DNA from: an uncultured Candidatus Saccharibacteria bacterium | GTDB lineage: Bacteria > Patescibacteriota > Saccharimonadia > Saccharimonadales > CAYUUR01 | DNA: 49,340 nucleotides | Reading direction: 5' to 3' | Assembly (NCBI GenBank): GCA_964448075.1 | Contig: CAYUUR010000005.1 | Span: 1-49,340, forward strand | In this document: in pieces, positions 1,524-15,058 of the stretch | Layout of the letters: every line of letters begins with the position of its first letter | Position numbering within the stretch: the first letter of the stretch is position 1 | The notes under the pieces: generated by a model | What the model was told of the DNA's origin: nothing | Seen by the model: the letters and a program-made list of their open reading frames with translations, nothing else | Databases searched by the model: none | Program-made: the position numbers and the translations under genes

Positions 1524-3233
1524 ATGAACCCGCAAGCTAACCAAAACGCCGTTGCGGCTATTAGGGTCTCAACCACCAAACAGGGCCGTGATGGCGACTC
1601 TCCTGAAGCCCAGAAAGAGCAAATTGAGCGGTTTGCACTGAATAAAGGTATCACCATTAAAAAGTTCTTTGTCTTTATGGAATCAGCCAGCAAAGAGCAA
1701 CAACCTATGCAGGAAGCCATAGATTACTGTAAGAACAAGAAAAACAAGGTTGACCTGTTTATTATCAAGTCAATTGACCGTTTTACCCGTGGCGGCTCAC
1801 TCTCCTACGATCTGCTCAAAACCCAGCTCGATAGTTGCGGTATTACATTGGTCGATACTTACGGCGTAATCAGCCAAGAGCAAGTCAACACCCTTGAACA
1901 TCTTGGGCACAGTTATAAGTGGAGTACCTACTCACCGAGCCGTAAGTCCGAGATGCTAGAAGCCGAACGCTCTAAAGATGAAGTCAGAGATATTTTAAGC
2001 CGTGTCATAGGTGCTGAAATCCGCTACACCCAAATGGGCTACTATATGCGCCGTCCGCCTTACGGTTTTATAAGCGAGAAAGTAGAAACCCAGCACGGCA
2101 AACGTACAATCTTAAAACCACACCCTGAAGAATCCAAATTTATTACTAAGCTATTCGAGCTAAGAGCCAGCCGACAGTTTACCGACAAAGAAATAGCTAC
2201 CAAACTTAACGACATGGGCTATCGAGGCCGCACGCAGTACCGTCGATCCAAAACAGACCGCAGTCGTATTGTTGGACAGACTGAGGGTGTGTTACTTGAT
2301 GAGAAGAAGCTTTGGAGGATCGTCAGAAACCCAATCTATACAGGTATTATAGTTGAGAAGTGGACAAAGTATCAGCCAGTCAAAGCTATGTTTGACGGTC
2401 TAGTGTCAGTTGAGCTATTTAACCGAGCTAACAGGGGCAAACGAACCATTATTGAAATGCCCGGCAACAAAATCGCCATCACTGACAATGTTGCCGAGAG
2501 AAACGCCACACCACAAGGTACGCGCAACAACGATTTCGCTTTTAAGCATTACGTCATGTGTCCGCAGTGCAACAAGCCGCTGTCAGGTAGCGCCTCACGT
2601 GGTAAAACCGGTAAATACTATTCGTATTATCACTGTGATAAACGAGGACATAAGTTCAGGGTTAGCAAGGAAGAGCTGGAAGCTAATATATACAGCTTCA
2701 TAGACGGTATGACATTCTCACAGGAGCGCATTGATGCAGTATTTGCTATCGTCCGCAAGAAATACGAGCAACATATAGCCACCTACGAGGCTCAGTCAGC
2801 GGCACTTGATGGACAAATCACCGCTCTTGAAACTAAAGCCAGAGAACTCACCAGAAGCTTCGCAACCATCGCCTCATCAGCTCAGAAATACGTCAATGAG
2901 GAGCTAGAGGATATAGATAGACAAATTAAGCGCTTAGCGCTGGAAAGGACAAACATGGAAAGTAAAAAACCTATGGATATAGACACTGTTTTAGAAAGAA
3001 TCAAAAAGTTTTCCGAAAACATTGGTCAGGCTATATCCCAACAGGGGAACAACATCAAAAAAGCCCAGCTTTTCGGGCTATTATTCAAAACTCTGCCAAC
3101 CTACAACGATTTACGTTTCCGAAACCGAAAAACACCCCTTTTTACAGGGGTGCATCCGATCTTTAGCCTACTCGCTGGCGATAATCTACATTTGGTGACC
3201 TCAAGGGGAATCGAACCCCTATTGCCAGGATGA
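1524..3233 (+). CDS. Large serine recombinase (integrase)
   Basis: Resolvase-type N-terminus with the AIRVSTTKQ catalytic-Ser motif, a recombinase domain, a zinc ribbon (CPQC...YYHCDKRGH) and a coiled-coil tail. A GAGGAAGG SD precedes the ATG. The last 41 nt are antisense to tRNA-Glu. Confidence 0.9.
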   Translation: MNPQANQNAVAAIRVSTTKQGRDGDSPEAQKEQIERFALNKGITIKKFFVFMESASKEQQPMQEAIDYCKNKKNKVDLFIIKSIDRFTRGGSLSYDLLKTQLDSCGITLVDTYGVISQEQVNTLEHLGHSYKWSTYSPSRKSEMLEAERSKDEVRDILSRVIGAEIRYTQMGYYMRRPPYGFISEKVETQHGKRTILKPHPEESKFITKLFELRASRQFTDKEIATKLNDMGYRGRTQYRRSKTDRSRIVGQTEGVLLDEKKLWRIVRNPIYTGIIVEKWTKYQPVKAMFDGLVSVELFNRANRGKRTIIEMPGNKIAITDNVAERNATPQGTRNNDFAFKHYVMCPQCNKPLSGSASRGKTGKYYSYYHCDKRGHKFRVSKEELEANIYSFIDGMTFSQERIDAVFAIVRKKYEQHIATYEAQSAALDGQITALETKARELTRSFATIASSAQKYVNEELEDIDRQIKRLALERTNMESKKPMDIDTVLERIKKFSENIGQAISQQGNNIKKAQLFGLLFKTLPTYNDLRFRNRKTPLFTGVHPIFSLLAGDNLHLVTSRGIEPLLPG

Positions 3234-3267
3234 AAACCTGGTGTCCTAACCGTTAGACGATGAGGCC
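3193..3267 (-). tRNA. tRNA-Glu (anticodon UUC), CCA encoded
   Basis: Manual cloverleaf: acceptor GGCCTCA/TGAGGTC, D arm GTCT-AACGGTTA-GGAC, anticodon arm CCAGG-TTTTCAT-CCTGG, T arm AGGGG-TTCGATT-CCCCT, discriminator A plus CCA. 75 nt. Confidence 0.9.
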
Positions 3268-3421
3268 TCGAGTGAGGAACAGTGATTTTGGGTTTACATA
3301 AAATCATGTTTTGAGCGAGAGGTCGCACAAGCAAAGCTTGGGAGGCCAAAGCGCTGGCATGAGTTGAACAGTTGTAGCACCTTTTACAACCGACAAATTG
3401 TACCATAACAGAGAGGAAATG

Positions 3422-3452
3422 AAAACCCCCGGCCATATTGATCGGGGGTTTT
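3422..3452. terminator. Bidirectional intrinsic terminator downstream of the LPXTG gene
   Basis: AAAA-CCCCCG-(11 nt)-CGGGGG-TTTT hairpin, flanked by an A-run and a T-run. Confidence 0.6.
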
Positions 3453-3540
3453 CTGTTAGATCCTGAGCGGTCAGTCATGCTCTATTTCTAGTGGTATCCT
3501 AGCACGAATTTGACATTTGCGCTAGTGGTTATCCACAGCT

Positions 3541-5181
3541 TTATCCGTTGCGTCGGGTAAGGACGAATCGGTAAGCCATAGTTGCGCCAACTGATACCGC
3601 TGCAAAGATAGCTGCTAGATCACCAGGACCAGTGTCAGGCAAAGCCGTTGCTGTTACTGGAGTAACAGGCGCTTCCTTACACTCTGGGCTGTCTTTTGGC
3701 AGATGTTCTTTGCCAGGGACTACACAGTTGTCCTTTGGTGTTTCTGCGCTGACTGTTACAAGGCAGTTATTGCCGGTAACAACTCGCTCTTCGCCATCAA
3801 CCATGAAGGTGATAGTTGCACGAGTAACGTATGTGCCGTCAGCAGCATACTGGTGCTCTACTGTCATCTTGTCAGTTACAAGTGGTGTCGCGTCATCACC
3901 AAAGTCATATCGTACAGTCTTGAGTTCTGCGTCTTGTGCAGTGTAGTCGAGTTCGTAACGGAAGCTACGGCTACCGAGTGCAACTGCAGTTAATGCGTCA
4001 CAACTTACAACTGGTTGTGGTGGGTTACAGTCTTCGATAACTACTACCGCGTCATCATTTTGCTCAGGAACATTAGTTGCACGAGCGTAAGCAACGTTGC
4101 GGGCTTCACAGTCGGTCAGGTCACCATTCTTGACGATTGCGTCAAAGTAGATCTGGCCAACGCCGTTCACACCATAGTTACCAACAGTTACACCGGCAGG
4201 GGCAAACAGTAGGTCATCACGGACAGGTGTACCGTTTGGACGGTTCGTATCAACCCATTCAACTGTTCCTGGTACGAGTTCTACATTGTTAGGGAGCTGA
4301 TCGCGCAACACGATGTTGTTGGCGACAGTGCTTCCAGTGTTCTTGAATTCGATCAAGTACTGTACACGCTCACCCTTACGAGCGACAACGCGGTCGCGCC
4401 ATTGGCTACTGTTCTCACCTTGCTTTCGCACGAGCTTGTCGAGCGTAAGGTCAGGTGCGGCAACTTTAACCTTTACATATACGTATGCTGAGAATTCAAA
4501 ACAGCCAGGCAGATTGCCATTCATCTGGTCGTAGCCAACAGGCGTACCGGTTGCAGACACGATAGCGTCTGGTAGTGCAAGACCATTCTGATGTGCAGGG
4601 TTATAGATCTTGGCAGATCCTGGAACGTACTGCACGCTAAATGCGCGGCTCTGGTTAGCAAGTGTTGCACTATCCCATACAGTTGCAGGTGTAGCATTGC
4701 TTGCGCTGACATATGACATAACGTCTACGCCATTAGAAACACCTTCGGCAATCGCCACGCGCACCTTGGTGTCTTTGGCAACACCAACGCCATCGTTAGT
4801 TGTTTGGTTAGCGTTGTTGTGTACAAAAGTTCGTACCCAGTACTCTTTGCCAGCTTGAGCGTTCTTGGTCTCACCAAAGTCAGCTTCAACTGGGCTTTGG
4901 CCGGCAACTACTTCTGCAACACGCGTAAAGTTACGCTCGTCACCATAGGTAGGTGTGTTTACAAATGAGTTGAACACAGGGCCTTCAAGTGATCCACAGC
5001 GGTCATACTTGTCGTCATCATTTGGGTTACACGCTTTGGTGTAGTCATATGTTGGGCGCTCAGGACCAAAGCCTGCAAGCGCGACAACCGGCAATGTCAG
5101 CAGAACAGCTGCAGCCATAGGCACGGTGATTTTCTTTGGAAGGTTTTTGATTTTGTTCAGTAGTGTAGTTAATTTCATCAT
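3541..5181 (-). CDS. LPXTG cell-wall-anchored surface protein with DUF11-like and PKD-like modules
   Basis: N-terminal signal peptide. The C-terminus has LPDTG, a hydrophobic helix and an RRNG tail (sortase signal). GERVQYLIEFKNTGSTVANNIVLRDQLP is DUF11-like. VRYDFGDD...HQYAADGTYV is PKD-like. A GGAG SD is present. Confidence 0.85.
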   Translation of the reverse strand: MMKLTTLLNKIKNLPKKITVPMAAAVLLTLPVVALAGFGPERPTYDYTKACNPNDDDKYDRCGSLEGPVFNSFVNTPTYGDERNFTRVAEVVAGQSPVEADFGETKNAQAGKEYWVRTFVHNNANQTTNDGVGVAKDTKVRVAIAEGVSNGVDVMSYVSASNATPATVWDSATLANQSRAFSVQYVPGSAKIYNPAHQNGLALPDAIVSATGTPVGYDQMNGNLPGCFEFSAYVYVKVKVAAPDLTLDKLVRKQGENSSQWRDRVVARKGERVQYLIEFKNTGSTVANNIVLRDQLPNNVELVPGTVEWVDTNRPNGTPVRDDLLFAPAGVTVGNYGVNGVGQIYFDAIVKNGDLTDCEARNVAYARATNVPEQNDDAVVVIEDCNPPQPVVSCDALTAVALGSRSFRYELDYTAQDAELKTVRYDFGDDATPLVTDKMTVEHQYAADGTYVTRATITFMVDGEERVVTGNNCLVTVSAETPKDNCVVPGKEHLPKDSPECKEAPVTPVTATALPDTGPGDLAAIFAAVSVGATMAYRFVLTRRNG

Positions 5182-5194
5182 ATATCTCCGTTAT

Positions 5195-6196
5195 TTACCT
5201 TCGTGGCAGATCGCTGGTTGGCGGGGTTGTTGGGTCTGGGTTGTCTTCAATAGTACTTGGTGTAGGTTCAGGCTCCTCAGGAGTTGGCGGTGCAATCGTT
5301 GGCTCAGGTCCGCTTGGAATTGGCTTTTCAACTGTCGTGCTTGGTCCGCCTTCAACTGGCGGTACTGCGTTCTTTGGTACGACAGGCTTGGTCGTTGTAG
5401 TCGAGCCTTGCGGTGGCTGAGTCGTGCCAGTAGTGCCCGTGGTGCCTGGGTTTGATGGCTTGGTCGTTTCTGTCGGAGGAGTTGGCTCTTCTGGCAAGTG
5501 TGGCACACCAGGGAACTCAATCAAGCTTACTGGCTGGAAGCCACAATCAAGCTTGAGATACTTTACGCGTCCGTCAGGGAAGGTAAACTTCAGCAAGGTC
5601 TTGTCTGTCATGTCTTCTTTGCTCTGGTAAATGCCAGGGCGGCCGTCGTTTTGATTCGCAATAGCGTACTGCGTGTAATAATCGCCACCTTCGGTCACAA
5701 GCTCAAGTTCAGCATTACTCAGATCAGCCACAAACCAGAGGGCATCATCGTTCCACTTAGTCTGGTCATTCATAAGAGCAACCATTTCACCGTCACGGCC
5801 AGCTGGGTCAGATGGTGCTGTCAGTTCAAAGTGTTCGTTCAGACCAACAAGCAGCATTGGATCTGCTTTGTCGTCTTCTGAAGAACAGACTCGTTCAATC
5901 AGTTCACCAAAGGCGCGGTTGGCGTCTTGGTATGCTGCTTCACTCGCCGCAGGGCCAAAACGGTTGCCAGTAGCTTCGTTAGCATAAAAACGCGTTTCTA
6001 GATTTGTAACACATGCTTCTGAATCAACGACGTCGTCTGCTTCTGCAACCGGTCTGCGTGGTTCGTCTTCCATTCCAGGTGCTAGCGCGTAGGCAGTAGC
6101 ACAGGCGGCTACAGCAACAACACCAGCGATAGCGCTGTTTCTTAGTACATGAGATTTTTCTTGTGTAGCAATAGATTGCTCGGGCATATTATTCAC
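5195..6196 (-). CDS. Membrane-anchored protein with a Pro/Thr-rich C-terminal low-complexity tail
   Basis: 333 aa with one N-terminal TM segment (AIAGVVAVAACATAYALA). The C-terminal ~100 aa are PT-rich. A strong GGAGGTG SD is present. It lies 13 nt upstream of the LPXTG gene, so the two are probably co-transcribed. Confidence 0.6.
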   Translation of the reverse strand: MNNMPEQSIATQEKSHVLRNSAIAGVVAVAACATAYALAPGMEDEPRRPVAEADDVVDSEACVTNLETRFYANEATGNRFGPAASEAAYQDANRAFGELIERVCSSEDDKADPMLLVGLNEHFELTAPSDPAGRDGEMVALMNDQTKWNDDALWFVADLSNAELELVTEGGDYYTQYAIANQNDGRPGIYQSKEDMTDKTLLKFTFPDGRVKYLKLDCGFQPVSLIEFPGVPHLPEEPTPPTETTKPSNPGTTGTTGTTQPPQGSTTTTKPVVPKNAVPPVEGGPSTTVEKPIPSGPEPTIAPPTPEEPEPTPSTIEDNPDPTTPPTSDLPRR

Positions 6197-6312: not shown

Positions 6313-8529
6313 CTACTGTTGTTTTGTAGATTTTTCTGTCGCTTTTGCCATGGTGACAGCTTGCAGTTTTGCCTTAGGGAAGCTGAAACCAAACGTGCTG
6401 CCGTTACCCTCTTGACTCTTAAATATGACCGATCCACCTTGCGCCACAATCACCTTCTTTGCCATAAACAGCCCCAGCCCAGTACCATCTGGACGAGCCT
6501 TCTTGGCATTACCGGCACGATAAAACTTACTAAATAGGTGATGCTGCTCGGCCTTTGGTACACCAATACCGTCATCAACCACTGTGTATTCAATGGCACT
6601 ACCTTTGTCTTCAAGGTTGATCGTAATGTGCCCGCCCGCCGGGGTGTAATAGATAGCGTTATCTATAAAGTTCATAATAACCTGGCGTGTCTTGGTTTCA
6701 TCCAGATTAAGCGTCGGGAAGTCTTTGGGCTTATGGTAGCTCAACGTCAAATCACGACCCTTAGCGGTCTCTACAAGCTGCGTGACTTCACCCTCAATCA
6801 CGTCCGCTAGATTGGTTGGCTTAGCCTCAATCACAAACTTACCAGTACGCAAGCGTGACACGTTCAGCAGGTCGGCAATCAGATAAACCATTCGTTGTGA
6901 GCTAATGAAGGCCTGGTCAAGCAGTTTCTGCTGCTGCTTTGACACTTTGCCAGCATCACCATCAAGCACCATACTCACATATCCCTTGACGCTCGTAAGT
7001 GGTGTTCGTAGCTGGTGGGACGCCATACTAATGAACTCGTCCTTGGTTTCATCCAACGCCTTAAGCTTCTCATTCGTCCGGCGCAACTTCCGCGTAGCGT
7101 CATCGACTTTCGCCTGTAGAGTGACATTGAATTGTTTAATTTCTTCATACTGTAGAGCATTTTGAACAGCAATTGCTAGTTCATTGGATGTAATCTCGAG
7201 CATATTTGTATCTTGACTATTGAATAGATTGCCACTTTTCTTATACCCTATAAAAACATAACCGATGTTTCTTTTTGTTGCCTCAGATTTCATCGCAATC
7301 GCCATGCTTATATTTAGTTTCCTCATCTTTTCCTTTAAAACCTTCTTATCGTCAAGTTCGTCCTGTTTAACAACCCGAGACTCGTGGCTTTTCATCAAGC
7401 TCTCCATCTCTCTTATATCTATCGAATTTGAGGTCGCATCTCCTGTACTAACAATGTATGGGCTGGATGAATTATTCGAGTTGATGGCAAACAGGCAGAA
7501 CTCGACCTTTATATACTTCTCGATAACCGCCCCCGACACGGATAGCAGATGACGCAAGTCAATGGTTGAAACAATCGCCTGGTTAAATTCGTTCAGAAGA
7601 TCTTGAGAGTCATAAGCGTCTTGGTAAAATAGCTGGTTGCTTTTCCGATTAAAATACTTCAGAAGAGGATTGAAGGTAAACGACAAAACTATAGCCAGCA
7701 CAGCGTATACAATAGGTGCATACTTTGCGCTGTCTGAAAACAATCTTATGGCTTGATCCGCAAAAACAAACACAAAAATGCCTACCATCAGCCCAATACT
7801 GAGCGTCGATAAAATGTAACCGACGGAGCGCGCCACCAAAAAACGAATATCAAAGAAACGGTGCTTAATAATCGCATATGCCACCAGAATAGAGAATATC
7901 AGTACGGCGAAATTGCCCAAAAGTAGCAATATTGAATCCGCCTGAACAATCCGTAAAAGAACTATTCCTGTAACTGCATTTGTCACTCCAACAATAAGTG
8001 TTGCGATTAGCATAATTTTTAACTGGTTCTTTTCGTTAACTTCACGTGTTCTTTTATATTTCTTGATCAGGACGACTAAGCTCAAGAAAACCAATGCAAG
8101 ACTCATTAGATCTGAAAAGTCATATAACGGACCAACATCAACCGGTAAAACTCCGTAGTCGAGAATCTCAACGCTTATTACGTTCAATTTCGTTAACGCC
8201 AAAGCCGAAAACAGTCCGTAGAGCGATCCGACTATAATCTGCTTCCGCCTGTTGACACTACTGGTGTACGGAAAGACAAGGACAAGGTAATAGAGCATTA
8301 GTGGGACAAGCTGTCCAAACATTAACGCAAATCGTAAAGCCCAGAGGGCAACAATTTCCTGTGATGTGGTATCGCTAATGAATAGCAAAGTGAGCCATAA
8401 GCTGGATATTAGGTTAAACGCTGCAAAGATTCGATTCTTAAGCCTTTTTGGGTCGTTTAAGAAAACGGCGAGCCCGATAAGGATCAATCCGATTATGGCA
8501 GGTATATAGGCAATTATCTTAAGAATCAT
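6313..8529 (-). CDS. Sensor histidine kinase with an N-terminal multi-pass (7TM-type) membrane domain
   Basis: H-box MASHQLRTPLTSVKGY, N-box NFIDNAIYYTP, G1 DDGIGVP, G2 GTGLGL. About 7 hydrophobic helices lie in the first ~300 aa. Confidence 0.9.
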   Translation of the reverse strand: MILKIIAYIPAIIGLILIGLAVFLNDPKRLKNRIFAAFNLISSLWLTLLFISDTTSQEIVALWALRFALMFGQLVPLMLYYLVLVFPYTSSVNRRKQIIVGSLYGLFSALALTKLNVISVEILDYGVLPVDVGPLYDFSDLMSLALVFLSLVVLIKKYKRTREVNEKNQLKIMLIATLIVGVTNAVTGIVLLRIVQADSILLLLGNFAVLIFSILVAYAIIKHRFFDIRFLVARSVGYILSTLSIGLMVGIFVFVFADQAIRLFSDSAKYAPIVYAVLAIVLSFTFNPLLKYFNRKSNQLFYQDAYDSQDLLNEFNQAIVSTIDLRHLLSVSGAVIEKYIKVEFCLFAINSNNSSSPYIVSTGDATSNSIDIREMESLMKSHESRVVKQDELDDKKVLKEKMRKLNISMAIAMKSEATKRNIGYVFIGYKKSGNLFNSQDTNMLEITSNELAIAVQNALQYEEIKQFNVTLQAKVDDATRKLRRTNEKLKALDETKDEFISMASHQLRTPLTSVKGYVSMVLDGDAGKVSKQQQKLLDQAFISSQRMVYLIADLLNVSRLRTGKFVIEAKPTNLADVIEGEVTQLVETAKGRDLTLSYHKPKDFPTLNLDETKTRQVIMNFIDNAIYYTPAGGHITINLEDKGSAIEYTVVDDGIGVPKAEQHHLFSKFYRAGNAKKARPDGTGLGLFMAKKVIVAQGGSVIFKSQEGNGSTFGFSFPKAKLQAVTMAKATEKSTKQQ

Positions 8530-8588
8530 CTTTGTTTTTCGTTGTTTTTACAAAGTTATTGTATCATGAGTGACTAAAGGTTTACACA

Positions 8589-9488
8589 ATGCAAATACAG
8601 AGAATTCCTGTGTTCCCAAATTTTTCAAAGCTTGATATTGCTCATCAAGAAGAGTTTGATCGACTGAGTAAAGATTTTGAACCATATGCAGAATTCAGCT
8701 TTCCTTGTCTTTTTTGCTGGGATACTGACGGAAGTACTCAATTATCGGTGTTGAACGGCAACCTGGTAATACGAATGCCTGACTATATTACTGGGGAGCC
8801 ATTTTACTCATTAATTGGTACGTCTATGATTGATGAATCTATGAATCAACTTCTTTCGATTACAGACTCTTTAAAACTAGTCCCAGAGGTAACAATCGAT
8901 CATATCAAGCGAGCTGAGAACTTTGTTGTTACGGCCGATCGTGATCAATTTGACTATATATATTCACTTGATCAGTTAGTCAACTTACCTGGGGCACACT
9001 TCAAGGGTCGCCGAAACAAAAAGGGCCGATTCGTCAAGGTTTACGAAGATCAGCTGCATATCAGTAAGATCAAATTTGGGTCGTCCGAAACCATACCTCA
9101 ACTTCTCAATGTATTTGATCGATGGGCTAAACAACGCGGTAGGTCAATCAGTGAAGCCAGTCACGAGCGCTTGGCGCTATCACGGTTACTGACTGAGTCA
9201 ACACGATTCAACTTAATTGGAATAGTCGTTGAGGTTGATGACGAAATTGTAGGATTTTCAATAAACGAGATTGTTCAAAAAAATTACGCCGTATGCCGAT
9301 TTCAAAAATCACTACTAGACATAGATCACTTGGACGCTTTTCTTTCAAACCTTGTTGCTGTTGAGTTAAAACACTACGGCTGCGATCTGATAAGCTGGGA
9401 GCAAGATCTTGGAATAGAAGGGTTGAGGCAATTTAAAGAGTCGTATAAGCCTGTTATGTTTCTTAAAAAATACACGGTTACAAAGTAG
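8589..9488 (+). CDS. DUF2156 / LPG_synthase_C-like protein (tandem GNAT fold, putative aminoacyl-tRNA-dependent transferase)
   Basis: 299 aa. The N-terminal pattern FSKLDIAHQEEFDRL...FSFPCLFCWD resembles stand-alone DUF2156 proteins. It is a paralog of 13018-13980. Confidence 0.5.
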   Translation: MQIQRIPVFPNFSKLDIAHQEEFDRLSKDFEPYAEFSFPCLFCWDTDGSTQLSVLNGNLVIRMPDYITGEPFYSLIGTSMIDESMNQLLSITDSLKLVPEVTIDHIKRAENFVVTADRDQFDYIYSLDQLVNLPGAHFKGRRNKKGRFVKVYEDQLHISKIKFGSSETIPQLLNVFDRWAKQRGRSISEASHERLALSRLLTESTRFNLIGIVVEVDDEIVGFSINEIVQKNYAVCRFQKSLLDIDHLDAFLSNLVAVELKHYGCDLISWEQDLGIEGLRQFKESYKPVMFLKKYTVTK

Positions 9489-9490
9489 TC

Positions 9491-10618
9491 TTAGGCTACC
9501 TGCTGCTTACTTAAAGCATAATACTCGATTGCACCCACGGGTTTATCCAGCCCACTGACTGTTGCCACACCACTTGCATTTATTGTGTCTGTAACAATAT
9601 CCGGTATGTAGGTGGTACTTACTTCAGTGCACTCAAATGTAATTAGTAGGTCGGCTCCACGTTTGGCAGCCAGTTTGATACTGAAATCTACTACATCCGC
9701 AGAGTAGCGATTTCCACGCCTAGACTCATCAGAAACTATGCCAGGGAAAATGAATATATTATTTGTAGCGTAGTACTCTTCATACTCTCTTTCAAACGCG
9801 CTCTTATTAAACCAAGGTGCTTTATTTATATCCTGTAAGAAAATCATCAAAGTTGTTATCTCGCCATCAACACGATTTACAACTTTTGCAATGTCTCGAT
9901 CTTTTAGAATATCGATTAATGCTTCCTTGTCAAACCCAGCCAGTGTCGGGTCATTCTCGCCCAATCCTTCAAATGGTTTTTCATAAAATGACCACACATG
10001 TTCAGCTTCATCGCCCTCAATACTAGCCACAAGGGATGGGCCGTTTCTCGCATCTCTCTCGTAGATTTCCTCATCAAGCGCTTGCTCGTATGCCTCAAAC
10101 ATGGTTGGTGCAGTTGACACATTTTGCGCCCCACTATTAATAGCCACATGCCCTACAAAAAAATCTACCCTACTTTCGACGCCATCTTCTCCCCCAAATG
10201 CTTCAACCCTAAACCTTTGATCTAGTTTTGCCTCGCGTACAAGTTCAGCTATTGGACTTGCATTATCGTCACTATACTTTTCAGTAACAACCACTCCACC
10301 GCGCTCTATAACTTCTTCAATCATTGATTTAACAGACTCGTGTGATTCCGCGTCAGCTGTAGGCGGGTGGACATAGCAGTAAATATCCGCATTTTTACCA
10401 TAAGTCCTCTCTAGTAGAGCAGTGTTGTACCATTCAAGTGCCTCAACAGGTACAAGCACTGGGGCACTAACCTCATTTCCGTCCTGGTTTAGATAGTCGT
10501 AGTGTAAGGTTCCTGGGTTTTCTAATGCTCTTTCTAGATCTTCGCCAAAAATGCCGACAACTAGTATTTGATTATTCTCAGCCCTGTAATCGCTGTACTC
10601 GCTCATATTACTCTCCAA
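9491..10618 (-). CDS. Hypothetical acidic cytoplasmic protein
   Basis: 375-aa ORF with no TM segments. It overlaps the upstream membrane-protein ORF by 11 nt. I cannot assign a family with confidence. Confidence 0.5.
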   Translation of the reverse strand: MESNMSEYSDYRAENNQILVVGIFGEDLERALENPGTLHYDYLNQDGNEVSAPVLVPVEALEWYNTALLERTYGKNADIYCYVHPPTADAESHESVKSMIEEVIERGGVVVTEKYSDDNASPIAELVREAKLDQRFRVEAFGGEDGVESRVDFFVGHVAINSGAQNVSTAPTMFEAYEQALDEEIYERDARNGPSLVASIEGDEAEHVWSFYEKPFEGLGENDPTLAGFDKEALIDILKDRDIAKVVNRVDGEITTLMIFLQDINKAPWFNKSAFEREYEEYYATNNIFIFPGIVSDESRRGNRYSADVVDFSIKLAAKRGADLLITFECTEVSTTYIPDIVTDTINASGVATVSGLDKPVGAIEYYALSKQQVA

Positions 10619-11429
10619 CTTGGACTTTTCGCTTAATGTACTTATTATACATGCCCGTCACGCCGGCAAGCAGTAACAATCCACCAACTATTGTCTTTGG
10701 CACACCGAAAGAACCCAGGGCCTCTCCTGTCAAAACCCCTTCAGCCGTAAAGTACACACCCATACAACCTGCTGTCCTTAAGCCAGATACAACATTCTCC
10801 TCCTTGCTCCTTTCAGGATGCACAACTTGCTTTGCTGCTAGTAAAACCGCAGTTCCACCCACCATAGCAATAGCAGCACGTAAAGGTAATGGGATCTCCT
10901 TGTTACTTTCAAAATTCTTACCCGTAATTTTTTCAACACTCTGATGAACTTTCTCAAGAGCCTTTTTAGTACCTTTGCCACTTAAAACATCCGCAGCGAC
11001 AACAGCAGCAAGACCTTCGATAGCAAATGTTGCTAATCCAAATGCAAACGCACTTGCAAGAGTGTTGCCTTGTGTGGCTTGGTAGGTTGCGCCGAAAACA
11101 GCATACCTACTCGCTTCATTACCGAATGATGCTTCAAATGAAAGAAAGCCGGCCTGCAAAGTCCTTTTACTATAGTGAATTGGGTCGTTCTGTAGTGCCA
11201 CTGCCGCATATTGCGCCCGATAGTTTACTGCTTGTGCGTGACCAACAATAAATGAGCCAGCTCTCGCGAGGAAGCCTTTGCTTACTGAATTGTCAGGGTT
11301 GTCCTGGTTAATCTCAACTATTGAGGCATTATTAATATCCAGCTCACTGACACTTTGAGACGGTATTTCTTTAAATGGGTCTAGATTTTCTTGCATAAAT
11401 TTAACCTTGTCGATTGAGTTAAAAAACAC
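10608..11429 (-). CDS. Hypothetical Gly/Ala-rich membrane protein
   Basis: The ORF has several Gly-rich hydrophobic segments. The listed start is GTG. An in-frame ATG at 11394-11396 is an alternative start. Confidence 0.5.
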   Translation of the reverse strand: MFFNSIDKVKFMQENLDPFKEIPSQSVSELDINNASIVEINQDNPDNSVSKGFLARAGSFIVGHAQAVNYRAQYAAVALQNDPIHYSKRTLQAGFLSFEASFGNEASRYAVFGATYQATQGNTLASAFAFGLATFAIEGLAAVVAADVLSGKGTKKALEKVHQSVEKITGKNFESNKEIPLPLRAAIAMVGGTAVLLAAKQVVHPERSKEENVVSGLRTAGCMGVYFTAEGVLTGEALGSFGVPKTIVGGLLLLAGVTGMYNKYIKRKVQVGE

Positions 11430-11531
11430 AGCTCCCTATCATAAGTGATAGCTCGCTGTGTTTTTCGTCTGAAAATGAACTTAGTACGACGTTGGATATA
11501 TTACTATATTAATATGAAGTTGTCAATGTAG

Positions 11532-11560
11532 TTGACATTGGTGTAGTTATTTGGTATAGT
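11532..11560 (+). promoter_or_regulatory. Near-consensus sigma70-type promoter (TTGACA-17-TGgTATAGT) driving a leaderless transcript
   Basis: The -35 TTGACA is at 11532-11537 and the -10 TATAGT at 11555-11560, with an upstream TG. The ATG follows 7 nt after the -10. The inverted repeat TGTCAA-N5-TTGACA (11521-11537) overlaps the -35. Confidence 0.65.
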
Positions 11561-11567
11561 ATATAAC

Positions 11568-11879
11568 ATGTTTAAAGAATTAAGACCTGGCACCCTAAAC
11601 CGAAAGTTTATCGCTATACCTCTGTCCGCGTTTTTTTTATTCAGCGCGCATGATACCCAATCGACAATATCGCCAAATTACGATCAGCAACAGCAAGAGG
11701 ATATCAATACAGATTTGAATAGGGTTTGTACGAATATCTATTTTGACAATCCGGATAGGTGTCAGCAAGCAGAAGACAAAACACACGATATCGGAAGTGA
11801 TCCCATTTCAAACGCACAATCACTGGGAACAATTTGTACGAATATCTATTTTGACAATCCGGATAGGTGTCAGCAGTAA
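11568..11879 (+). CDS. Small secreted protein with two identical Cys-bounded 14-aa repeats (CTNIYFDNPDRCQQ)
   Basis: 103 aa with an N-terminal hydrophobic signal-like segment (FIAIPLSAFFLFSA). The two perfect peptide repeats are encoded by a 43-bp perfect DNA repeat. Confidence 0.6.
   Translation: MFKELRPGTLNRKFIAIPLSAFFLFSAHDTQSTISPNYDQQQQEDINTDLNRVCTNIYFDNPDRCQQAEDKTHDIGSDPISNAQSLGTICTNIYFDNPDRCQQ
11725..11875 (+). repeat. Two perfect 43-bp direct repeats (11725-11767 and 11833-11875), period 108 bp
   Basis: TTTGTACGAATATCTATTTTGACAATCCGGATAGGTGTCAGCA was read twice, in the same reading frame. Confidence 0.95.
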
Positions 11880-11896
11880 AACGTAAATTGACACGT

Positions 11897-13021
11897 TTAC
11901 TCGGACAGGAAGATTTGGCTGGGTATTTGAAAGTCATTGAACGGAGCGCCATAAACAACTGTGTACGCACCAGCTGAGCCAAAATATACCTTGTCTCCAA
12001 TCATAAGTGTCTCTGGCAAAAGTGCGTTATGCGTTATAGTGTCGCAAGAATCGCATGTCGGCCCAGTAAGAACATAGTTCGTTAGTTTGGCGTTTGGTCC
12101 ATCTTTACTGGATGTTACCGGGTATTGAATACTATCTGACTCAAACATTTCGACAAATGCTTGAAACCGCCCAACATCTAGAAATAGCCAATCCTGATCT
12201 CCACGCCTGACTTTACCAATTATTGACGATACAATCACACTACTTTCTGCCACCAAATAGCGTCCAGGCTCGCACCACAGATCAACTTCGTATGGCAGCT
12301 TAGCAACATTTGCACGGATTCTTGCGGCAATATCCTCAATTGAAGGAATCGGCTGACAATGATCTACAGGGAAACCTCCCCCAATGTTTACCACTTTCAT
12401 TTTGATGCCTGCCTTTAGCAACTCCTTCATAAGTTTTACTGTCCGCGAAAAAGCAGAGTCCCAAACTTCAAGACTTTCCGCTTGAGAGCCAACATGGAAA
12501 GCAATTCCTACAGGCTCCAGTCCTTGCTTTCGTGCATAGGTTAAAATTGAGACAGCACTATCAATTGTGGCGCCAAACTTATCGCTTAGTTTTATCAAGC
12601 TACCTTTATTCGATACGTTTATTCGCAAATATACTTTGCTGTGTGGTGCGTATTCGTGTAGCTTATCGACTTCCTCCGTTGAATCAACTGCATAAAATAT
12701 GACTCCCTTATCATAAGCCTGTTTTATATGACTAGGGATTTTTACTGGGTTACTGAAAATTACATCTCTTGGTTCTACATCCAGTTCGGTTAGGCGATCT
12801 AACTCACCGATCGACGCAATCTCGAAACCACAACCTGTAGAATAAAGTCTCTTGAGGATAGGCTTAGCTGGACATGCCTTAACAGCGTAGTAAATCTTTG
12901 TATTGGGCAGGTTAGCCTTTAAGCCATAGAATTGCCGTTGAATATAATCGAGGTCAGTAACCATCAACGGAGTACTTGCAACACTACCCTTCAAGTATCG
13001 TGCATTAAGTCTGCTCGTCAT
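11897..13021 (-). CDS. PLP-dependent ornithine/lysine decarboxylase-like enzyme (alanine-racemase fold, ODC type)
   Basis: YYAVKACPA (PLP lysine), GGGFPV, CEPGRYLVAES and GPTCDSCD motifs. 374 aa. Confidence 0.8.
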   Translation of the reverse strand: MTSRLNARYLKGSVASTPLMVTDLDYIQRQFYGLKANLPNTKIYYAVKACPAKPILKRLYSTGCGFEIASIGELDRLTELDVEPRDVIFSNPVKIPSHIKQAYDKGVIFYAVDSTEEVDKLHEYAPHSKVYLRINVSNKGSLIKLSDKFGATIDSAVSILTYARKQGLEPVGIAFHVGSQAESLEVWDSAFSRTVKLMKELLKAGIKMKVVNIGGGFPVDHCQPIPSIEDIAARIRANVAKLPYEVDLWCEPGRYLVAESSVIVSSIIGKVRRGDQDWLFLDVGRFQAFVEMFESDSIQYPVTSSKDGPNAKLTNYVLTGPTCDSCDTITHNALLPETLMIGDKVYFGSAGAYTVVYGAPFNDFQIPSQIFLSE

Positions 13022-13980
13022 GTCTTGATTGTATCATCATGCCAAACATCTACTGGCCTGACACAATACATGCGCAAAAAGTTGGTAGGCGCTAACGACA
13101 ACTTGATGTTTCTGAGTAATGGAAATCCCGAATCAGCCTCGATGTTTACAAATTTTACCCTCTCTTCTTTGAACCATCTTGCATACATATATATTGAAAT
13201 CTCCATTAAATATGGAAGTTCGTAACTAAAACGAGCATGTGACATTATCTTGTAATCGTCAGCAGGGCTATCTTGTAGAATCAAGAAACTATGTAGCTCT
13301 CCATCCAAATACATGCCCAGTCCGTTAAAGCCAAGATCATTAGCCTTACGAATCGCAATCAACAGACAATCCTCTTCGTGTTTTGCGAAGTTATTCACGC
13401 CCCCCTTTAACTTCCATCTGGAAACAAGCTCAATCAGCTCGTCAGCTTGATAAACCGAGCTCAGATCAAGCGGCGCAACTTTTATTCGCTCATTATTGTA
13501 TTCATCTAGGAATCGCTTTAATTTCCACTGTTTGTGTCTTGGCAACGCATCAATATTGGCTAGTTGACGACAGTCCACAATACACTCATCGTGTTCACGC
13601 TCTGCAGTAAAGCGAAAGAGTTCTGGGTATCGGACTTGGCTAACCACATGTTCCGGGACATGAGTCAGACATTGCTTTTGTCCCTTTGACCGCTGAAAAT
13701 CAAATACGGCGCAAAAAGTCTCATCGACATTATCGTTACCTAAAACCGTCAAGCCTGAATATTCATCATAACCTGGATACCACAAACATATCACCATGTT
13801 ATTCCCGTGCATGGCAATTCTGCACGGCTCAAGCGCACTCCACCAAGTAAGTAAAGTACCGAAGCTTAGAGAAGCAGAAGGCTGAAATCGGCTACAAAAT
13901 TGCTCGTAAAGCTCGCGGTGGGCAAGTGTGAGTTTGGTGAACTCAGGGAAGGTTTTGAAGTGAGAGGCACCTTTTTGCAT
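13018..13980 (-). CDS. DUF2156 / LPG_synthase_C-like protein, paralog of 8589-9488
   Basis: FTKLTLAHRELYEQF...LSFGTLLTWW pattern. Its stop overlaps the decarboxylase start (ATGA at 13018-21). The listed TTG start is at 13992. The first ATG is at 13978-80. Confidence 0.5.
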   Translation of the reverse strand: MQKGASHFKTFPEFTKLTLAHRELYEQFCSRFQPSASLSFGTLLTWWSALEPCRIAMHGNNMVICLWYPGYDEYSGLTVLGNDNVDETFCAVFDFQRSKGQKQCLTHVPEHVVSQVRYPELFRFTAEREHDECIVDCRQLANIDALPRHKQWKLKRFLDEYNNERIKVAPLDLSSVYQADELIELVSRWKLKGGVNNFAKHEEDCLLIAIRKANDLGFNGLGMYLDGELHSFLILQDSPADDYKIMSHARFSYELPYLMEISIYMYARWFKEERVKFVNIEADSGFPLLRNIKLSLAPTNFLRMYCVRPVDVWHDDTIKT

Positions 13981-14079
13981 GATGGGCTCCAATTTGCACT
14001 TATCGTACTATCTTTTGACAGGAATGAAAATTGCTTGTGCTAGACAGTATGTAATAACTGGTGCACAATAAAACTAAAG

Positions 14080-14445
14080 ATGAAACAAAAAGTCGCTGTT
14101 ATCGAAGATGATCTGCCAATCTGTGAGATGTATGAGTTCAAGCTACAAAACTCTGGGTTTGAGGTCAAGACGGCTCACAATGGACAGGATGGCTACAAGC
14201 TAGTAGAAGTCTTCAAGCCAGATCTTATTCTACTGGACCTCAAAATGCCCATCATGACGGGGGACGCCATGCTGCAAAAACTCCGCCAAACTGAGTGGGG
14301 TGCAAACCTGCGCGTTATTATCCTGACAAATATTAGCCGCGACGAAGCACCGCATAGCCTGCGCTTTCTGAACGTTGACCGCTATATCGTCAAAGCACAC
14401 CACACGCCGCAACAGGTAATAGATATCGTCAAAGAACTCATCTAG
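14080..14445 (+). CDS. Stand-alone receiver-domain response regulator (REC only)
   Basis: 121 aa with EDD acidic pocket, LLDLKMP phospho-Asp motif, ILTN and a conserved K (VKA). No output domain. Confidence 0.9.
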   Translation: MKQKVAVIEDDLPICEMYEFKLQNSGFEVKTAHNGQDGYKLVEVFKPDLILLDLKMPIMTGDAMLQKLRQTEWGANLRVIILTNISRDEAPHSLRFLNVDRYIVKAHHTPQQVIDIVKELI

Positions 14446-14542
14446 CAGTACGGCATTGTTTGAACTTTGGAGTACGACTCTCTCATCGTTTTCAGATTCT
14501 CCGAATTTAATCACAAAGCTTAGCAATTGTTCAGAGTTTCAA

Positions 14543-15058
14543 TCACTTAGAAACTACTTTGTTAACCGCACTCCGCAATTTACGGTTGCTCAATGCATAG
14601 ATTGAGGTTAGCAATTCTAAATCACATCCATTCAAATCATTTGATGTTAGATTATTCTTTGGCCTAAAGATTGTGTGACTATACCTCAATATAATGCTTG
14701 TTATCAATGATCTTTTGATAAGCTCTACGTTTACATCGGATGGCTCCGTGATCTCTTCTTTTATGCCTAAAGTATCCGGGTTAATTTCACTGTTGAAGGC
14801 ACAAAACTGTGGTATTTGCTCAAGTGTAGCCTTAGTAGCGACAAACGAAATCTTTCTGCCCTGTGAGTCGTAAAGTTTAAAGCCGGCATCCAAGATTCCT
14901 GTCCCGAAATTATACACGTATTCAATGTTGTCGCTTATCTCATCAACAGAATAACCACCTCTATAACGATCAAGAAGGTAGTAGGGAGACTTTGTGTGTG
15001 AAGCTGCCAAGTTCATCATCTCCAGAATAGCAAACTTCGCATAAATGAGTGTAACCAT
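14543..15058 (-). CDS. Hypothetical protein (orphan immunity-like cassette gene)
   Basis: 171-aa AT-rich ORF with an ATG start, lying between the intact receiver gene and its relic. Confidence 0.4.
   Translation of the reverse strand: MVTLIYAKFAILEMMNLAASHTKSPYYLLDRYRGGYSVDEISDNIEYVYNFGTGILDAGFKLYDSQGRKISFVATKATLEQIPQFCAFNSEINPDTLGIKEEITEPSDVNVELIKRSLITSIILRYSHTIFRPKNNLTSNDLNGCDLELLTSIYALSNRKLRSAVNKVVSK

Follow-up and report, generated by a model that had tools for sequence, protein, structure and literature searches.

The small gene located in the window (i.e., the whole analyzed stretch of 49,340 nt from an uncultured Candidatus Saccharibacteria bacterium) is best explained as an accessory gene that has its own promoter and encodes a secreted (bivalent) ligand of two disulfide-stapled units, a reading to which we assign a probability of about 0.5. 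Comparison with its homologs shows, at the level of sequence, that this gene is real and under purifying selection, and that the signal-peptide-like N-terminus, the twin-loop architecture, and the leaderless geometry are conserved. The analysis corrects the first-pass annotation, in which the product was taken for a possible multi-core RiPP precursor, and revealed that a leaderless start behind a strong promoter is commonplace among the genes of this genome. On present evidence, the small protein is an orphan accessory protein and not a new biosynthetic or signaling system; no new mechanism is demonstrated by it, and its value is that of a well-defined candidate, with no surprise. It is compact, has a clear candidate epitope (two invariant loops), and is easy to synthesize and test.

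To our knowledge, hardly any small secreted protein of Saccharibacteria or other CPR bacteria has been characterized, and such proteins are obvious candidates for contact with the host bacterium. A literature search concerning leaderless transcription, small secreted proteins, and peptide signaling in Saccharibacteria found nothing relevant.

Open reading frame, 43-nt repeat and two-unit architecture

The small gene comprises an open reading frame on the + strand, in which the ATG at 11568 is the only usable in-frame start. Its 103-aa product begins with MFKELRPGTLNRKFIAIPLSAFFLFSA and carries two identical copies of CTNIYFDNPDRCQQ. The following features were distinguished within and directly behind the gene:

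11568..11879, + strand: coding sequence of the 103-aa precursor, stop codon included (ORF; homologs P0002 and P0003; leaderless geometry)
11568..11648, + strand: predicted Sec-type signal peptide, residues 1-27 (hydropathy profile; homolog conservation)
11661..11768, + strand: unit 1, residues 32-67, ending in the loop C54-x10-C65 (six-unit alignment; AF2 unit model)
11769..11876, + strand: unit 2, residues 68-103, ending in the loop C90-x10-C101 (six-unit alignment)
11725..11767, + strand: repeat copy 1, 43 nt, gene-conversion tract (repeat search and offset comparison)
11833..11875, + strand: repeat copy 2, 43 nt (repeat search and offset comparison)
11879..11898, no strand assigned: AT-rich inverted repeat AAACGT-N8-ACGTTT, weak, in the 17-nt gap between the convergent stop codons

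The two identical segments and the perfect 43-bp direct repeat with a 108-bp period, reported already in the first-pass annotation, were confirmed at 11725-11767 and 11833-11875, i.e., 36 codons apart (blastn for the repeat pair, E = 8e-18). A column-by-column comparison at the 108-nt offset revealed that identity falls at once to the background level outside the repeat, and no further copies of it were found in the 1.07-Mb genome. The hexamer TTGACA, which occurs within each coding repeat, was rejected as a meaningful element, as it is not conserved in L003 (one of the two homolog loci described below) and is a product of the F-D-N codons. For the AAACGT-N8-ACGTTT inverted repeat, the terminator scan gave no terminator call.

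The loop-coding segments are identical at 43/43 nt in the window vs. 27/42 nt in L003. As the loops of the homolog differ to this extent, the complete identity observed in the window is due to recent gene conversion and not to a new duplication. In the six-unit alignment, the pre-loop sequences match by position between the lineages, first unit to first and second to second, without gaps, and the pre-loop part of unit 2 from the window aligns more closely with unit 2 of the homologs than with their unit 1. This unit-to-unit correspondence argues for an old two-unit architecture and suggests that duplication of the unit predates the split of the lineages. Judging from the alignment, the two-unit architecture with its identical spacing is the ancestral feature, and only the loop-coding 43 nt have been converted. 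It was previously proposed that the repeat reflects recent duplication or homogenization; homogenization is upheld, whereas recent duplication is not, the two-unit build being ancestral. The synonymous G>A substitution at 11861, found in copy 2 of a second strain, implies that the DNA identity as such is not enforced. It should also be stressed that the functional repeat is the 36-residue unit, helical in its predicted structure, and not the 14-mer that had been regarded as the core.

Homologs and purifying selection

A search of 5.8 billion protein clusters retrieved a sole relative, P0002 (113 aa, 32% identity), and an exhaustive HMM search of 1.84 billion representatives made a sole genuine addition, P0003 (112 aa). 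Within these collections, the family has three members; neither this HMM search nor the word-indexed one of the clusters returned any others, and both homologs are encoded on metagenome contigs. Each of the homologs possesses a charged n-region, a 14-residue hydrophobic core, a predicted VAA↓E cleavage site, and two C-x3-YFDNP-x-RC loops, the second of which ends 2-3 residues before the stop. The spacing of the loops is identical in all three proteins (24 residues between them), the four Cys are invariant in all three, and Y-F-D-N-P-x-R is invariant in all six loops. The Cys-bounded loops are, on these alignments, the most conserved part of the small protein.

The dN/dS ratio for the pair of homolog loci (L003 vs. 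L025) is 0.27 overall; it is lowest in the signal (0.09), followed by the loops (0.15), and reaches 0.44 in the remainder. Moreover, a second strain of the window's organism was found in an independent sample (L057; 99.5% identical over 6.3 kb). Its small protein is identical to that of the window, and the sole substitution within the gene is the mentioned synonymous one (G>A at 11861; CCG>CCA, Pro).

A pattern scan of genome contigs found no family member, and the one match of the scan among metagenome contigs (L005) was rejected, as it lies on the antisense strand of a gene for a Cys-rich protein. When 60 relatives, 400 genomes of the order, and a further 400 from the class were searched with the HMM in six frames, chance matches alone were returned, and the small gene is absent from these approximately 800 genomes of the order and class. 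Also rejected as family members were L002 and L007-L012, which are interrupted by stops or lie in other frames; L056, which is read from a tilS-like gene in an alternative frame; and P0004, a eukaryotic gene model (5042 aa) returned by the exhaustive HMM search, whose six identical CHEIYFDVPNIC stretches give a summed chance match. No similar small secreted Cys proteins of this kind were identified elsewhere in the same genome, and sequence searches of Pfam, NCBIfam, and PDB with the small protein gave nothing meaningful. The family is new to all curated libraries, although its kind (a small secreted disulfide-stabilized repeat protein) is ordinary.

Signal peptide, predicted fold and proposed role

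The signal-like N-terminus noticed in the 103-aa product at first pass was borne out. It consists of a charged n-region (K3, R6, R12, and K13), a 14-aa h-region FIAIPLSAFFLFSA with a mean hydropathy peak of 2.4, and a small-residue site, all of which are kept in the homologs. A rule-based reading classifies it as a Sec type I signal; a lipobox Cys is absent and no Cys occurs before residue 54. The proposed cleavage site of the window protein is FSA↓H vs. the canonical VAA↓E in the homologs, and its F at position -3 is atypical; cleavage after FSA is probable. We infer Sec export and this site from the hydropathy profile and from homolog conservation. The predicted mature protein has about 76 residues (8.7 kDa) and is acidic (pI 4.1), and its second loop is situated two residues before the stop.

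The AF2 model of the whole protein was unusable (pLDDT 45). The 36-residue unit, modeled with the six units as the alignment, reached a pLDDT of 78, with the reservation that only six related rows were available and that pLDDT exceeded 75 in only two of the five models. In this model, a helix spanning residues 6-26 ends just past the first Cys and is followed by the Y-F-D-N turn and by a short helix (31-35), which begins at N-P-(D/G)-R-C; N-P-D/E is a classical helix N-cap. The two Cys of a unit would lie across the turn, positioned for a staple. Foldseek with the unit model returned only generic helix-turn fragments (E > 4). Pairing of the cysteines within units rather than between them is assumed here. 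Within the genome, VKOR has two homologs (scores of 144 and 110 bits) and a Thioredoxin_4/DsbA-like protein scores 103 bits, all above the curated cut-offs, which makes oxidized cysteines and disulfide loops plausible in exported proteins. That all four Cys are invariant in the three family members supports their oxidation only indirectly. It is from the unit model and from these enzymes that we infer the disulfides and the fold of the small protein.

In the preferred reading, a leaderless mRNA would be transcribed from a near-consensus sigma-70-type promoter, and its product would leave the cell via Sec, with cleavage after about residue 27 releasing an acidic protein (pI of about 4.1) of about 76 residues, built of two 36-residue units. 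In each unit, a helix would run into a tight turn (Y-F-D-N), behind which a short helix (N-P-D/G-R-C...) would be pinned back by a disulfide between cysteines 11 residues apart, presumably formed by the VKOR/DsbA-like system. The invariant YFDNP-x-R loops would then be the functional surfaces of a two-headed extracellular ligand, whose putative target may be located on the host, on a competitor, or on the cell's own surface, and gene conversion would keep the two loop-coding segments alike. An epibiotic lifestyle is generally attributed to Saccharibacteria, so the surface of a host or competitor is a natural guess for the target; both the ligand function and the target are guesses, and an acidic 8.7-kDa protein could have many other roles.

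The predicted structure may be compared with twin Cx9C (CHCH) proteins and disulfide-stapled helical-hairpin mini-proteins, in which short helical segments likewise contain the motif Cys-x(9-10)-Cys twice and whose stability, like that of the small protein, probably depends on disulfides. However, in CHCH proteins each Cx9C is placed within one helix and the disulfides link two helices, whereas in the small protein an N-P-(D/G) turn interrupts C-x10-C and the model puts the cysteines of one unit on either side of that turn. The small protein is, furthermore, bacterial and predicted to be Sec-exported, and it shows no sequence or Foldseek similarity.

Promoter and leaderless start

The intergenic region upstream of the small gene contains two promoter-like sites facing in opposite directions:

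11532..11560, + strand: small-gene promoter TTGACA-17-TATAGT with an extended -10 TG (11/12 matches)
11498..11526, - strand: divergent promoter-like site TTGACA-17-TAATAT (10/12 matches), facing the gene of a 273-aa (probably 262-aa) membrane protein

In the small-gene promoter, the -35 hexamer TTGACA (11532-11537) is separated by a 17-nt spacer, with TG at 11552-11553, from the -10 hexamer TATAGT (11555-11560). Only 7 nt (ATATAAC) lie between the latter and the ATG, and no Shine-Dalgarno sequence precedes this start codon. It was previously described as the best promoter of the window, which is close to the mark (11/12 plus TG) but slightly too strong, since a 12/12 site (spacer 18) is present on the minus strand near the left end of the window. 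The inverted repeat TGTCAA (11521-11526)-N5-TTGACA, noted earlier as overlapping the -35, is present as well. As the minus strand carries TTGACA-17-TAATAT, the -35 of which is the left arm of this repeat, the simplest reading is now that of two divergent, back-to-back -35 boxes. The back-to-back promoter appears, from its position, to serve the window's 273/375 genes at present.

The leaderless geometry (the ATG 7 nt after the -10) stood up to comparison, as it recurs in the homolog loci and is common in the genome. Upstream of both homologs, TTTACA-17-TATTAT-6-ATG is perfectly conserved between L003 and L025. A genome-wide promoter scan gave 41 sites with at least 11/12 matches, the small-gene promoter included, and an ATG-led ORF starts 6-10 nt after 17 of these 41 best sites. 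Across the genome, 129 long ORFs have a TANNNT whose end is 6 nt upstream of the first start codon (background about 45), with an excess also at 7-9 nt. This peak, together with the 17/41 sites followed by a near ATG, implies that leaderless initiation is a regular mode in this organism, of which the small gene is, on its promoter geometry, a good example and no exception. The small protein is probably highly expressed. Other genes of the same genome show a peak of Shine-Dalgarno-like 4-mers 6-9 nt upstream of their starts.

In the second strain, the first base of the small-gene -10 is changed (T>C at 11555, TATAGT>CATAGT), and so is one base of the minus-strand -10 (A>G at 11500, TAATAT>TAACAT). 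No other base of the 138-nt intergenic region differs between the strains, and both changes strike -10 hexamers of the divergent promoters. As a consequence, expression may differ between the strains, and a high level would not be universal; the two changes may reflect regulatory divergence or, with n = 2, chance.

A hairpin with 20-nt arms followed by U6 was found at 11422-11465 on the minus strand, in the leader of the 273-aa gene (-27.1 kcal/mol, z = -3.5). It is located between the minus-strand promoter (whose -10 ends at 11498) and the gene, and covers the GTG at 11429; according to an independent gene call, the product has 262 aa, which fits a start at the ATG 11396. The hairpin could be an attenuator or a terminator-like element in the 5' leader.

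Genomic neighborhood and distribution

The genome (1.07 Mb) is rated 100% complete, and genomes of the order range from 0.6 to 1.3 Mb. The gene order in the window is: 7TM histidine kinase (-), DUF2156 (+), a 375-aa protein of unknown function (-), the 273-aa membrane protein (-), the small gene (+), an ODC-type PLP decarboxylase (-), a second DUF2156 (-), and a REC-only regulator (+). The outermost genes are:

6313-8529, - strand: 7TM histidine kinase (window gene order)
14080-14445, + strand: REC-only regulator (window gene order)

The small gene has the 273/375 operon as its divergent neighbor and the decarboxylase as its convergent one. The convergence with the latter, claimed at first pass, was confirmed, the decarboxylase stop being situated 17 nt after that of the small gene. 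Four closer relatives (G010, G015, G022, and G024), whose kinases are 46-55% identical to that of the window, keep the decarboxylase/273/375/DUF2156/kinase block, while the small gene is absent. In these genomes, the 273-like and 375-like genes (joined into one in G015 and G024) come immediately after the gene for a pyruvoyl arginine decarboxylase, and in G010 and G015 the REC-only gene adjoins this decarboxylase divergently. On this comparison, the small gene of the window sits inside what is elsewhere a single decarboxylase-273-375 operon. The small gene is missing from the same-genus genome G001 as well, in which a homolog of the 375-aa protein was not found either.

The two homolog loci, which represent one distant relative, lie farther off (kinase 37%, regulator 56%, and 375-like protein of 375/379 aa 25% identical). 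In both, the small gene is located between a divergent gene for an FtsX/MacB-like permease and the gene for the REC-only regulator, with no DUF2156 or decarboxylase genes beside it. No enzyme neighbor is common to the two known contexts, as far as gene content reveals, and the comparison shows the small gene to be independent of the neighboring enzymes. It appears to be patchily distributed, always with its own promoter, in a regulator-proximal slot of a conserved backbone. In this respect, it is similar to moron-like cassettes, in which a single self-promoted gene of lower GC content and patchy distribution is likewise situated in or beside a conserved operon. Unlike in morons, no phage or mobile-element borders were recognized around it, and the search for flanking repeats gave no hits.

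Alternative explanations

It is unlikely, in our opinion, that the product is a secreted peptide signal sensed by the 7TM histidine kinase, with phosphorylation of the REC-only regulator, as in a Gram-positive-style autoinducing circuit. This idea draws on synteny. The window and L003 each have, in one neighborhood, the genes for the kinase (37% identity), the regulator (56%), the 375/379-aa protein (25%), and the small protein (32%), and, in L003 and L025, 88-91 nt separate the end of the small gene from the regulator gene, which has the same orientation; this spacer is conserved (80/88), and no terminator was called in it. Moreover, the second loop lies at the very end of the C-terminus, a placement like that in Phr- or ComX-type precursors. 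However, 56 of the 60 relatives have a regulator ortholog, often as tandem arrays, and the 30 ortholog loci scanned contain no small Cys-loop gene near the regulator, so the small gene was rejected as its regular partner. Furthermore, the kinase block occurs in at least four relatives without the small gene. This wide occurrence of the regulator and the kinase block implies that the synteny is that of a backbone rather than of a dedicated circuit. The small gene and that of the regulator are, in the window, kept apart by two convergent genes, and the kinase is 3-6 kb away, with unrelated genes in between. The regulator is REC-only, without an output domain, and no AgrB/ComAB-type processing or export gene was found.

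The likeness to Phr/CSF-type precursors of Bacillus (a Sec signal, a hydrophilic pro-region, and a conserved C-terminal element) is one to the general features of that family and not one of sequence similarity. In contrast to them, the small protein has no conserved cleavage sites flanking its loops and no adjacent RRNPP receptor gene (Pfam scans of the neighbors in the window and in L003 gave no Rap, NprR, PlcR, or PrgX), and its conserved element is a 12-residue predicted disulfide loop in a 36-residue helical unit, present twice. In a more specific and quite improbable version, the product would be a diffusible or contact signal of the ultrasmall epibiont, read by the adjoining kinase and the REC-only regulator, with the loops kept identical by conversion; an in-frame 108-nt deletion via the 43-nt repeats could then switch between one- and two-loop forms. 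If true, this would be the first peptide-signaling circuit described in Saccharibacteria/CPR.

The explanation put forward at first pass, i.e., a multi-core RiPP, bacteriocin, or pheromone precursor, in which the CTNIYFDNPDRC segments would be excised cores, perhaps modified by neighboring enzymes, is very improbable. It was suggested by the two identical Cys-bounded segments, the second adjoining the stop codon, and by transferase- and decarboxylase-type enzymes encoded within 2 kb (the DUF2156 aminoacyl-transferase-fold proteins, the decarboxylase, and the GNAT-like 375-aa protein). Multi-core RiPP precursors (e.g., of the cyanobactin type) likewise contain repeated near-identical short segments in one small protein. 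However, the small protein has a Sec-type signal peptide in place of a leader, and conservation spans the 36-residue helical unit, without a conserved cleavage motif in the residues flanking the loops (six-unit alignment). The supposed link to the DUF2156 and decarboxylase genes did not hold, as these enzymes are missing beside the gene in L003 and L025 and are present without it in G010, G015, G022, and G024; in the window, the gene is on the opposite strand to the decarboxylase and convergent with it. Genes for an RRE, radical-SAM, YcaO, LanM, or peptidase-ABC exporter were not found adjacent to the small gene. There was also no match to the curated NCBIfam models, which include many RiPP-precursor families, and a pI of 4.1 sets the acidic product apart from most bacteriocins. 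Judged by gene content and alignment, the multi-core model fails where it can be tested, i.e., on co-inherited maturation genes, on the leader, and on the cleavage flanks.

Finally, a spurious or decaying ORF, with the repeat and promoter belonging to a non-coding element or to the scar of a recent insertion, is disfavored and scarcely tenable, since the extremely narrow distribution, the lower GC content of the small-gene region (37-44% vs. 47% for the genome), and the variable slot that would fit it are set against an open frame, a signal peptide, and both loops kept at 32% overall identity across distant lineages, a dN/dS of 0.27 with most synonymous change in the signal and loops, a sole and synonymous change in the gene of the second strain, and a promoter-ATG geometry conserved in the homolog loci.

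Composition of the conserved block and strain variation

The block of genes for the kinase, DUF2156, the 375-aa GNAT-like protein, the 273-aa protein, the decarboxylase, and the REC-only regulator is common to five genomes (window 6313-14445; L018, L019, L020, and L021). Its composition looks like that of an amine-transfer or envelope-modification pathway. Where the relatives have the pyruvoyl arginine decarboxylase, the window contains the ODC/DapDC-type PLP decarboxylase and the second DUF2156, a swap that looks like non-orthologous displacement. In L003, the interval between the kinase and the small gene encodes a 450-aa protein with a weak match to the ArgRS N-terminal (tRNA-binding) domain and an aldehyde dehydrogenase (4185-5537 and 2993-4195), a cargo set unlike that of the window.

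Between the second strain and the window, 26 of the 32 SNPs fall within the 3' half of the REC-only gene and the next 430 nt (14214-14879), and the 5.6 kb to the left of this SNP-dense stretch contain six. Such a distribution fits a recombination boundary at the receiver (REC-only) gene.
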